DNA of 64,000 bases from Promethearchaeota archaeon (lineage in GTDB: Archaea > Asgardarchaeota > Lokiarchaeia > Sigyniarchaeales > SOKP01). The stretch lies in contig JAHPZA010000006.1 in NCBI GenBank assembly GCA_019058445.1, forward strand, positions 320,001 through 384,000, read 5' to 3'. This document shows, piece after piece, positions 37,496 to 42,468 of this stretch. Position numbers and translations under genes: made by a program. Under the pieces are notes generated by a model. The model worked only from the letters and a program-made list of their open reading frames with translations, searched no databases and was not told where the DNA came from. Every line of letters begins with the position of its first letter. Within the stretch, counting starts at the first letter, position 1.

Positions 37496-38440
37496 ATGCC
37501 ATTCAAATCGGATTTACAAGATTCTAACTCATCATTAGTCATCGCACTTGACAAAGTGGGTATTGTTGATTTGGAAAAGAAAGTTGAGATAGTACAAGAA
37601 AATAAGCGCTACTCCTTTTATCCGAAAATTTCTGCTCTCATTAATCTTCCAGCTCAACAACGGGGTATTCATATGTCTCGAACTTCTGAAACAATTGAAG
37701 AGATTATAAATGACGTAATATTCAGACCTACACCTACGATTGAACGTGTTGGCGATAGAATAGTAAAAAAATTGTTAGAAAAACACCCCTATACCACAAA
37801 AGCAGAAGTCAAATTAAAGGGAAGGATTGTTGTTCAAGTCAGAGAAAGCGAACAAAGAACCATCCAAAAATCGTATGATATAAGTTCTTATGTACTAGCA
37901 GAGAAAAAGAAATCTGGCGTTATTGATTTTAACTATTTCATAGGAGCGAGCGCAGTAGGGATTACTGTTTGTCCCTGTGCAAAAGAAATGTCTCAAGAAT
38001 ATGCTGAAGAAATTATTAAATCAAGAAAGGATATTAATATTTCCGAAGAAGACATTAAAAAATTGATAAATATACTTCCTTTCTCCTCTCATAATCAAAG
38101 GTCAAAAGGCACTATTGTTGTACAAATAAAAGATCTAAATAGTCATATAGTTGATGTGTTAGATATTATTGATATTATAGAGGAATCTATGAGCGGACGA
38201 ATTCAATCTGTTTTAAAAAGACCGGAGGAAGCTGAGTTAGTTAGAAGTGCCCATTTAAAGCCTTTATTCTCCGAAGATGTAATTCGAGAAATGGCAAAAA
38301 ATTTTATAACAAGGGACTTTCCAAATTTAGAAGATAATTTTAAAATTAGCTTTAAAATAGAAAGTTATGAATCCATTCACCCTCATAATGTATATGCGGA
38401 ATTAACCACTACATTAGGACATTTAAGAAAACGAATTTAA
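37496..38440 (+). CDS. mptA: GTP cyclohydrolase IV / FolE2 family
   Basis: DLQ, RGIHMSR, GITVCPCA, HNQR, LKRPEE, P.FSED, ESIHPHN. Confidence 0.92.
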   Translation: MPFKSDLQDSNSSLVIALDKVGIVDLEKKVEIVQENKRYSFYPKISALINLPAQQRGIHMSRTSETIEEIINDVIFRPTPTIERVGDRIVKKLLEKHPYTTKAEVKLKGRIVVQVRESEQRTIQKSYDISSYVLAEKKKSGVIDFNYFIGASAVGITVCPCAKEMSQEYAEEIIKSRKDINISEEDIKKLINILPFSSHNQRSKGTIVVQIKDLNSHIVDVLDIIDIIEESMSGRIQSVLKRPEEAELVRSAHLKPLFSEDVIREMAKNFITRDFPNLEDNFKISFKIESYESIHPHNVYAELTTTLGHLRKRI

Positions 38441-38666
38441 ACAGCTATTTTCGAAAATCGTATTTTTTTTAAATATTTTTATTAAATTTATTTTTTTCTT
38501 CTATTCTAATATTATAAAAAAAGCTATGTTATAATTCCTTTAATTTCAGTTTATCAAAGATATCAATCAACTTTCTAATAGGAATATAAAATAAATTCGA
38601 GATTTTAGAGATATGATATCCATTTTCTTCGAATTTTAATAATATATAAGCCTCATTCTAAAGTCA

Positions 38667-40259
38667 TTAAAAATGGCATTCTCTTTTCACATGACTCTCA
38701 GTGGATTCGAGAATTTTTCTCATTAACTTTAAAACTAGTTCATTCTTAATATCTTTTAAAGATTCTTCATCCCATAAATTATTCATCTCATTAGGATCCT
38801 CTTTAAGGTTATATAATTCACCTTCATCACGAAAAATTGTAATTCTCCATTCATCAGTAATTAATGTCCTTGTTTTTTCCTTAATGAAATCATCGTCCAT
38901 TTCAATTAGCACATCATCATTAATCTCAGTATTTGGATTATGAATAATTGGAACCATACTTTTTCCTTGCATGAATTCTGGTATAGGGATTCCCACTAAT
39001 TCCAATATCGTTTCTGGAATATCAATTGAACTTACTAAAGATGAAGATACTGTATTTTTTACCCCATTTGGGATCTTCATTATAAAGGGAATATTAGTTA
39101 AAGTATTATATAAAAATGGACCTTTAAAGAAGAATCTATGCGCTCCTCCTAATTCACCATGATCTGTTGTATAAATTATCACAGTATTCTCTGCCAAACC
39201 TGTTTTTTCTAATACATCTAAAATTTCTCCAATTGCATCATCCACCATTTTTTCCATTCCATAACATGCGGCAATAACTCGCTTAGCATCCAATTCTGTT
39301 AAATCTTCTGCTTTTGGAAATACATTTGGTTGTGTTCCCTCAGTATTCACTGGTTTTGAATAGTGTCTTCTATTTATTAAAGTGCTATTTTCATGATTAT
39401 CATGAAATGTATCTGGAAGAATAACATCTTCTGGTTTATACATATCAAAATACTTTCCTGGGGGGGTGAAGGGGTGATGAGGATCGGGAAAACTACAAAA
39501 TAGAAAGAAATTATCTTTGGAAACTTTCCCTTCATTAAATCTATTCAAATAATCAATGACTCCCTCTTTAACAAACGTAGTAGAATAAAGTTCTTCTGGT
39601 ACATTGTGATTCCATACTTGAATCTTAATATTTGAACTATTTTCCGGTATCATTGATTTACCATATTTTCGTAGAATTTCCCGATAAGTATCTTCAGGTT
39701 CTATTCCCAATTTAAGTTGTAAATTCTCGTCCAAATTCACTTTGGTTACTACCCATTCAAGAAAGTCGGGATGCCCACAATAAATTCCATGTCCCGATAC
39801 AATTTTAAATTCCTCCAATCCAAAATAAATCTCATGATCAGAGAGATTTTTATAATATTTAGGAACAGCAAATTCTTGACTTTTAAGGTTCTTAGTAACA
39901 CGCTTCTTACCAAAACGCTTCTTCTGAATTACGCCGAAATAATTTAAATGAATCTTTCCAAAATTCGCAGTGTGATACCCGTTTGATCTTAAAAGATCTA
40001 CGAATGTTTTAGTATCTTGTGGTAAATTTCTCCCATTTGTATTAACTCCATGAACCGAAGGATATTGTCCTGTAAAAATAGTACTCCTGTTAGGCATACA
40101 GATAGGATTATTACAATAAAAATTGGTAAATTTAATTCCTTCTTTTGCAATTTTATCAATATTAGAAGTCTGCAATACTAAATTGTCATTATAGCAGCTT
40201 AAATGATCCTTTCGCTGCATGTCAGTAATAATAAATAAAAAATTCAATTTTTCGTTCAT
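38667..40259 (-). CDS. Cys-type sulfatase
   Basis: FIITD.QR.D, CMPNR..IFTG (CxPxR), GKIHL, DPHHPF, DHGE. Confidence 0.92.
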   Translation of the reverse strand: MNEKLNFLFIITDMQRKDHLSCYNDNLVLQTSNIDKIAKEGIKFTNFYCNNPICMPNRSTIFTGQYPSVHGVNTNGRNLPQDTKTFVDLLRSNGYHTANFGKIHLNYFGVIQKKRFGKKRVTKNLKSQEFAVPKYYKNLSDHEIYFGLEEFKIVSGHGIYCGHPDFLEWVVTKVNLDENLQLKLGIEPEDTYREILRKYGKSMIPENSSNIKIQVWNHNVPEELYSTTFVKEGVIDYLNRFNEGKVSKDNFFLFCSFPDPHHPFTPPGKYFDMYKPEDVILPDTFHDNHENSTLINRRHYSKPVNTEGTQPNVFPKAEDLTELDAKRVIAACYGMEKMVDDAIGEILDVLEKTGLAENTVIIYTTDHGELGGAHRFFFKGPFLYNTLTNIPFIMKIPNGVKNTVSSSLVSSIDIPETILELVGIPIPEFMQGKSMVPIIHNPNTEINDDVLIEMDDDFIKEKTRTLITDEWRITIFRDEGELYNLKEDPNEMNNLWDEESLKDIKNELVLKLMRKILESTESHVKRECHF

Positions 40260-41825: not shown

Positions 41826-42357
41826 TTATGATTTCTTCTAAATAAACTTGTTAATTTACTTATTTTTATATATTTAAAATTTATGAAAACTCTCATATTA
41901 TTAAAACTCTTAATTAATGAGAATAATGTTAAGAATAAAAGATATTTTTTAAATATTTCCGTAAATGGGAGGTTATTTTTTAAATAAATTTATTTTTTTA
42001 CCCGTAAAAAATTACGGTAATAAAATTCATGAATTAGATTTTATTATATAATATTGTTCATAATATCCTACTTCGTAAAATATGTTTCGATTACTAATTG
42101 TTATAATATTAGTTAAAGCAAATTAATACTATTTTTTTTATAATTTTATATTTTTATAGACCTAATTGTTTCAATTGGTTTTAAATTTCCTCTACTTTAT
42201 CCGTTTAAGTAGATTGCGATTATTCAAAACTTATTTACTTAGGAGGAATAAAAATTATTTCTGTTTCATTTTGCAATATGATTTTAAACAAATTTTGATC
42301 AGAAAAAATTTAAAAATTTGTCTACAATTTTTAAGAATATTCAGTATAATAATACAT

Positions 42358-42468
42358 ATGCAAATAGTTTTTAAAATTGAGAGCTGTGAATCTATTCATC
42401 ATCATGATGTCTATGCTGAATTAAGTACTACAATAGGAGAGCTAAAAAAAAAATTAAAACTAATTTAA
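42358..42468 (+). pseudogene. mptA: 3' remnant of mptA
   Basis: FKIESCESIHHHDVYAELSTTIG versus the mptA C-terminus FKIESYESIHPHNVYAELTTTLG; 56/69 nt identical (42370-42438 vs 38351-38419). Confidence 0.88.

Follow-up and report, generated by a model that had tools for sequence, protein, structure and literature searches.

The 3' end of mptA recurs 4 kb beyond the intact gene

The window analyzed here, a 64,000-nucleotide (nt) stretch of a Promethearchaeota archaeon genome (contig JAHPZA010000006.1, positions 320,001 to 384,000; G000:C6:320001-384000 in our notation, G000 being this genome), comes from a metagenome-derived assembly of 4.6 Mb on 10 contigs with 4.3% contamination. Within this window the gene mptA is followed by a lineage-specific insertion of 4.9 kb that holds two sulfatase genes and, beyond them, a repeat of the mptA 3' end itself, which is the subject of this report. 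The fragment is probably the orphaned and decaying 3' end of an mptA allele other than the resident one, left stranded at a junction that acts as an insertion hotspot. We determined the gene order of the window from a listing of open reading frames (ORFs) together with Pfam. The resident mptA (37496–38440, + strand) is intact and, judged from its sequence, encodes a predicted enzyme of the GTP cyclohydrolase IB/FolE2 family, with a full-length match to PF02649 (positions 6–301, E 7.9e-60); a genome-wide search found it to be the only full-length copy in the 4.6 Mb genome. Its left neighbor, divergently oriented and conserved, is an amidohydrolase gene (36212–37381, − strand; PF01979, E 6.5e-39), and the conserved gene on its right is nucleotidyltransferase-like (43331–44374, + strand; hereafter NTase).

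When mptA was used as a tblastn query, the sole other match in the genome was found at 42361–42438, on the same strand as mptA and 4 kb downstream of it, with 19 of 26 amino acids identical (E 4.5e-7 against the window and 6.2e-7 genome-wide). A profile built from 69 mptA sequences (68 from relatives and the window's own) matched 42355–42462 and aligned it with profile positions 279–314 only, which are the last 36 (E 1.9e-14). The right-hand copy of the repeat is thus a pseudogene relic of ~36 codons and a stop at 42355–42468 (+ strand), and its left-hand counterpart is the C-terminal 31 codons and stop of the working mptA (38345–38440, + strand). A previous interpretation of this DNA, made from the letters alone (the sequence-only reading), had already recognized that the 3' end of mptA is repeated downstream, and this is borne out for the last ~31–36 codons; the repeat does not begin at the conserved ESIHPH motif, where that reading had placed its start, and instead sets in 5–7 codons upstream of the motif. 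The earlier count of 56 identical nt of 69, with 7 synonymous differences, comes close to our own: aligned without gaps from the FKIES codons the two copies share 64 of 81 nt, and over 29 codons they share 66 of 87 nt, 9 of the codon differences being synonymous and 8 non-synonymous. The longest exact run common to both copies is 8 nt, which does not amount to the att-like core that had been suggested.

Several residues of the fragment set it apart from orthologous MptA sequences. The cysteine at its position 8 and the histidine at position 13 occur in 0 of 113 orthologues, and the aspartate at position 15 in 3 of 113; the presence of residues that orthologues lack indicates that the fragment has decayed since it was severed. 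Outside the fragment, a search of the intergenic parts in all frames, by profile and by tblastn, returned no further mptA remnants. Two candidate extensions were also dropped. One was a 24-residue resemblance to the NTase at 42271–42342 (tblastn E 0.48), which scored −0.4 against the NTase profile, and the other was a possible continuation of homology beyond the stop of the fragment into a G001-type spacer and NTase start, which was not significant (score 22, the 95% null value being 24).

The resident gene retains its inherited C-terminus

The sequence-only reading held that the inserted DNA had replaced the 3' end of mptA, a claim that turns on which of the two C-termini matches that of close relatives. 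We therefore placed both ends in a maximum-likelihood tree of full-length mptA containing 68 references, comparing in two runs the likelihoods obtained when the last 31 codons of the resident gene, or the fragment, were joined to each branch in turn. The resident end fell with its nearest relatives, with a likelihood weight of 0.998 in the clade formed by G000, its closest genome G003 and the metagenome loci L133 and L136, and its placement in genus g21 was rejected by the approximately unbiased (AU) test (pAU 0.026). The fragment was the odd copy, with a likelihood weight of 0.85 in g21, 0.04 in g6 and 0.0004 in the resident clade. Consistent with this placement, the fragment is 82–84% identical at the nucleotide level to mptA ends of g21 as compared with 76–79% to the resident copy (both ranges depending on the span compared), and its variable tail, GELKKKLKLI, is similar to those of g21, GELKKKLKLKI for example. 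The left-hand repeat copy is by this test vertically inherited, the polarity originally claimed is not supported, and the fragment would appear to have come from a foreign lineage.

The one part of the resident C-terminus that departs from its relatives is its extreme end. The MptA proteins of G000 and G003 are 92% identical, and the resident gene aligns with that of G003 up to 38431; beyond this position the G000 protein ends in RKRI-stop and those of G003, L133 and L136 end in RKNIHK-stop. This difference indicates that the insertion remodeled the last ~4 codons of mptA, the left insertion junction falling after 38431 and the remodeled tail, comprising the last two codons and the stop, occupying 38432–38440 (+ strand). 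The working gene has otherwise kept its inherited C-terminus. Tails of mptA differ even between sister sequences (L136 and L148), a variation that fits recombination at exactly the end of the gene.

The junction between mptA and the NTase gene is variable among relatives

We compared the gene order around mptA across 12 relatives, ~45 further genomes of the family and 80 metagenome loci, giving ~140 related loci in all. The ancestral order in these loci is amidohydrolase, mptA, NTase, the last two genes usually lying 6–50 nt apart, and the first two are neighbors almost everywhere. In 27 loci the NTase gene follows mptA after only 6–149 nt, and among these is L133, a close metagenomic relative (90% amino acid identity in MptA and 80% in the NTase) in which an empty site of 13 nt separates the mptA stop from the NTase ATG. 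At other loci a gap of 0.4–7.9 kb intervenes and holds different cargo from one lineage to another, some of these gaps measuring only 0.4–1.1 kb. That of G000 is 4.9 kb, and its nucleotide similarity to G003 stops at 38431 and restarts at 43346, within the NTase gene. The gap of G003 is 3.8 kb and contains a hypothetical gene, an AMP-binding acyl-CoA synthetase-like enzyme and a TetR regulator. The g2/g21 type of gap, at ~7.8 kb, contains a ubiquitin-like system with ThiF/E1, E2, JAB and ubiquitin domains. In G010, of genus g2 (L029 4835–12609), ubiquitin-like, ThiF/E1, E2 and JAB proteins are encoded between mptA and the NTase gene, and the metagenome loci L142, L180, L187 and L189 have a gap of the same ~7.8 kb length. 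Taken with the archaeal mptA and the sediment provenance of the samples, such ubiquitin clusters in relatives suggest a lineage of Asgard type.

The occurrence of variable cargo in some relatives and of empty sites in others identifies the mptA/NTase junction as an insertion hotspot, and the ancestral state of the clade containing G000, G003 and L133 was most likely an empty junction. That DNA had been inserted at the 3' end of mptA, as first proposed, is upheld by this synteny, and the expectation that related genomes would carry different cargo or none has likewise been realized, different cargo being found in G003, G010 and the g2/g21 type and none in the 27 adjacent loci. A full second mptA paralogue at this position in relatives, which would have pointed to simple decay of a tandem duplicate, was not encountered; nor did the ~140 related loci contain a second copy or fragment of any kind, with the exception of G037. 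The latter has two mptA genes, one of which is identical to that of G087 over the first ~850 aligned columns, and its bin has 9% contamination, so that the second copy is probably a contaminant of the bin.

Two other variable stretches lie close to this junction. To the left of the amidohydrolase gene, an ORF of 504 residues with a DUF4379 zinc-finger (34535–36049, within 34437–36149) is missing from the corresponding stretch of G003; a homologue with 58% identity adjoins the amidohydrolase gene in L135, marking a second variable spot nearby. To the right, the NTase gene is separated from a TPR gene (45738–46814, + strand, identified from the ORF listing and Pfam) by a spacer (44375–45737) that is ~1.37 kb long in both G000 and G003 and ~100 nt long in L133, G005 and G001, and that contains short internal repeats and only small ORFs.

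Cargo of the 4.9 kb insertion

The genes bracketed by the two repeat copies are, as the sequence-only reading had it, two sulfatases, and ORFs together with Pfam confirm that no integrase lies between the copies. That reading ended the interval at the repeat, and so captured the sulfatases and omitted the continuation of the insertion to 43330, which includes a frameshifted histidine-phosphatase gene. The insertion begins with an AT-rich spacer (38441–38666) that has no blastn match to G003 and no match to the mptA or NTase profiles. Sulfatase 1 (38667–40259, − strand; PF00884, E 1.1e-42, and PF16347) and sulfatase 2 (40314–41825, − strand; PF00884, E 2.9e-31) both have a C-x-P-x-R motif near the N-terminus (CMPNR at residue 54 and CTPSR at residue 58, respectively) and are of the Cys type, thereby matching formylglycine-dependent sulfatases in sequence. 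These two genes are the only long ORFs in 38441–42354, and a recombinase or integrase was absent from the G000 interval as well as from the cargos of G003 and G010. GC content is slightly raised over sulfatase 2 (0.37–0.385 vs ~0.30), a difference that is not diagnostic.

Neither sulfatase gene is peculiar to this insertion. Sulfatase 1 is an extra member of a large paralogue family, with a 75% identical paralogue at G000:C6:284378-285952; matching spacing to a second sulfatase gene suggests that this paralogue corresponds by synteny to the G003 copy. G000 has at least 7 sulfatase paralogues that match sulfatase 1 at E <1e-100, many more exist across the family, and the sulfatase repertoire of G000 is large for an archaeon. 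Sulfatase 2 has single orthologues in G002 (80%), G003 (78%, contig C354), G006 and g21. These never adjoin sulfatase 1 or mptA, and homology with them ends at the ends of the coding sequence. The suggestion that the pair travels as an islet is thus at odds with the separate occurrence of its members elsewhere.

Downstream of the sulfatases lies an AT-rich element of ~300 nt (41826–42121, + strand) with a short conserved hairpin at ~41998–42020. Two direct copies of it, with 83% and 76% identity, flank an NMO gene on contig C330 of G003 (L047, 1355–1620 and 2829–3122), and one of these copies abuts an 8-codon relic of the start of sulfatase 2 (MNKIMREKI-stop, L047 from 3135). The NMO gene proved uninformative as a synteny marker for the element because there are at least 7 NMO paralogues, and an Rfam scan of 38300–45800 gave no match. 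For the spacer that follows (42122–42354), searches of the genome and the family gave no homologue, short AT-rich words aside; a contig from sequencing run X3, which belongs to another sediment study, covers 42130–42353 and diverges on both sides of it.

Beyond the mptA fragment, a histidine-phosphatase cassette (42514–43207, + strand; PF00300, E 2.6e-46) is probably a pseudogene. The gene has an ATG at 42584, a frame slip within an A6 run at ~42588–42593 and its RHG motif at 42607–42615 in the frame of the ORF 42643–43185; the break means either that an accessory gene is decaying or that the homopolymer was misread in sequencing. The cassette is 84% identical at the nucleotide level to G036:C139, and the closest homologues of the gene, in G036 and G038, likewise contain stops. 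Occurrence of this gene is patchy (15 of the 135 family genomes surveyed, G000 included). On the G036 contig (L054 7262–7947) the histidine-phosphatase pseudogene is followed, in an unrelated neighborhood, by a 38-residue fragment of an NTase (residues 223–260, 63% identity). Together with the sulfatase 2 start relic and the mptA fragment itself, this NTase fragment indicates that small relics of gene ends are recurrent in these genomes. Judged by these matches, the cargo is a mosaic of family genes rather than a conserved unit or element.

A parallel in G003 and a candidate mechanism

In G000 an anchor gene is followed by variable cargo and, at the far end of that cargo, by part of the anchor repeated in the same direction. 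A shorter direct repeat of the target flanks the unrelated cargo of G003 (L023, which is G003:C341, at ~13117 and ~9304), so the flanking repeat noticed in G000 recurs in a second genome. The G003 repeat is imperfect, ~32 nt long and reaches from the final codons of mptA across the spacer into the start of the NTase gene. Its left copy matches the empty site of L133 at the 5' side and its right copy matches it at the 3' side, and this reciprocal mosaic, as would be expected of a single crossover with a diverged copy of the site, lends moderate support to such an event. Repeats as good were obtained in 15 of 2000 and in 6 of 500 shuffles. No flanking duplication stood out at the 16 other gap-bearing loci.

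The fact that G000 has the same geometry as G003 with a longer duplication leads us to favor homology-anchored insertion. Under this scheme, DNA bearing the mptA 3' end of another lineage would have paired with the 3' end of the resident mptA and entered by a single homology-anchored crossover, either of the Campbell type from a circular intermediate or as an illegitimate join. The crossover would have occurred near the extreme 3' end of the gene or its stop codon, which would leave the inherited C-terminus in place save for the last ~4 codons, and the outcome would be an intact mptA and an incoming mptA end of the same orientation, with the sulfatase genes between them. The histidine-phosphatase cassette may represent a separate insertion into the same gap, and one that is also decaying.

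A number of observations weigh against this scheme or against the foreign origin of the fragment. The G003 repeat is significant only before correction for the 17 loci tested. The reciprocal mosaic of a single crossover is not demonstrable in G000, given how short the tails are and how low their complexity is, a search of the G000 cargo for a remnant of the empty site yielded nothing above the null, and a circular intermediate was not observed. With only ~100 nt of the fragment informative, its placement in the resident clade falls short of formal rejection by the AU test (maximum pAU 0.09), and among the 135 family genomes and 80 metagenome loci no donor end is more than 84% identical to the fragment. 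Neutral decay with an AT bias could mimic likeness to AT-richer relatives, and the g21 genomes carry the ubiquitin-system cluster after mptA, unlike the sequence that follows the fragment here.

Alternative explanations

If the assembly or the binning had joined two strains or organisms, the arrangement would be an artefact. G000 is a metagenome-derived genome with some contamination, and other samples give different flanks for some pieces of the region. We therefore turned to Logan contigs, which represent an assembly of the same sample by a different assembler. Contigs of the probable source run bridge 37000–39225, 39278–41176 and 41150–44400 with 0 mismatches and at an even depth of 25–27, and a 14.4 kb contig of the same run independently carries the amidohydrolase gene, mptA and the end of sulfatase 1. 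Because an independent assembly bridges both junctions, misassembly, which had been recognized from the outset as capable of undoing the case, is unlikely, and we give an artefact of either kind almost no credence. Beyond the source run no contigs encoding an identical MptA were found. Runs X3, X5 and X9 contain the sulfatase genes at 95–99% identity, and their cover over the fragment is thin. The read joints in these runs are weak, the two that were tabulated having shorter sides of 21 and 24 nt. One weak joint in X3, with 21 nt on its shorter side, skips 37051–43341 (37050/43342), and a weak back-joint from 42000 to 37475 is seen only in the table of inserted letters of that run; both have ends that lie off the repeat borders. 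The X3 joints could reflect arrangements in other strains, repeats, or traces of deletion or circular forms.

A second possibility is that mptA gave rise to its own duplicate, by a tandem or segmental duplication, and that a later deletion spared just the last 36 codons of it. The decay of the fragment would be in keeping with such a history, and the AU test leaves room for it, pAU for the resident-clade placement being 0.09–0.14 when both runs are considered. Yet the likelihood weight of that placement is just 0.0004–0.003 in the two runs, the variable tail of the fragment is unlike those of G000, G003 and L133, the interval holds no other remnants of mptA, and no second copy or fragment turned up in the ~140 loci, given that the G037 copy is probably contamination; we regard this history as quite improbable. 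The placement of the two ends also bears on an account modeled on the prophage e14 of E. coli K-12, which is flanked by icd and by icdC, a C-terminal pseudogene (PMC13626634). By analogy with that precedent, an integrative element would have entered mptA ~30 codons from its end and supplied a new 3' end, so that the distal fragment would be the displaced original. Direct repeats of the 3' end do flank the cargo, relatives have an empty site, and the last ~4 codons of the working gene differ from those of its nearest relatives. However, it is the resident 31-codon end that groups with G003 and L133 (0.998) and the fragment that does not (0.0004), which is the reverse of what displacement would produce; moreover, no integrase is present, the longest exact run is 8 nt and the cargo consists of genes native to the family that are not linked elsewhere. 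This account is very improbable.

A site-specific element could have entered without displacing the resident end had its attachment site included an mptA 3' end and the exchange occurred near the stop codon. The distal copy would then be derived from the element, the recombinase and core would since have been lost and the cargo would have been reshuffled. The geometry expected is identical to that of homology-anchored insertion, and reuse of the same site in several lineages, along with a ~32 nt duplication in G003 that spans the stop codon, would follow naturally. Against it, none of the three cargos examined encodes a recombinase, the duplications differ in length (~32 vs ~100 nt), no identical core is left, and what the cargos encode looks like ordinary metabolism or regulation; we consider such an element unlikely. 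A more speculative idea, to which we attach little weight, is that mptA/NTase serves the whole family as a cassette-exchange site that operates without an element-borne integrase, circles carrying an mptA tail and spacer being captured repeatedly by short-homology crossover. If so, target duplications of variable length would be expected (~32 nt in G003 and ~100 nt in G000), the orphan fragment would be the attachment-like anchor of a circle, and the X3 back-joint could trace a circular or tandem intermediate.

Discussion

Chromosomal hotspots of gene gain between conserved core genes are a general pattern rather than a defined system. The mptA/NTase junction shares with them the presence in the same interval of different accessory genes, or none, depending on the lineage, and goes beyond the usual pattern in having duplicated target sequence at the borders of the cargo in two genomes. 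Among defined systems, and by analogy only, the closest textbook case is e14, and the closest proposed mechanism is the one put forward for orphan ends in Rhs and type VI secretion system (T6SS) loci.

The likeness to icd/icdC and e14 lies in a short C-terminal duplicate situated beyond inserted DNA, in direct orientation, with the gene remaining functional (PMC13626634). With e14, icd continues into the prophage and icdC, on the distal side, is the pseudogene; the element has its own recombination system and excises. Here, by contrast, the proximal end is inherited and the distal copy is foreign-looking, there is no recombinase, the copies are 76–79% identical and no excision product has been shown. 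In Rhs and T6SS loci, orphan 3' ends have been attributed to homology-facilitated illegitimate recombination (PMC5361080; PMC3240628). There, too, a conserved anchor stands beside variable cargo, incoming DNA pairs with the anchor, and 3' fragments that were displaced or have hitchhiked accumulate downstream (PMC5361080; PMC3240628). Those are bacterial toxin-immunity loci, in which retained pieces can be selected, whereas the anchor in G000 is an archaeal housekeeping gene of cofactor biosynthesis and what lies downstream is a decaying fragment, and one fragment rather than an array.

The arrangement described here is a known kind of recombination scar, of which it provides a further example in an archaeal lineage, and not a new type of mobile element or a new function. 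For annotation, it follows that the working MptA has its native C-terminus, that the 100-codon ORF at 42166–42468 should not be called a gene, and that the histidine phosphatase is probably a pseudogene. For the biology of the family, the fragment is a footprint of recombination in an uncultivated sediment archaeon, and it pinpoints a hotspot between two conserved genes that has taken up unrelated cargos in independent events. Considered alongside the G003 duplication of ~32 nt, it suggests that insertion may be guided by short homology at the end of a gene, with no dedicated integrase involved.

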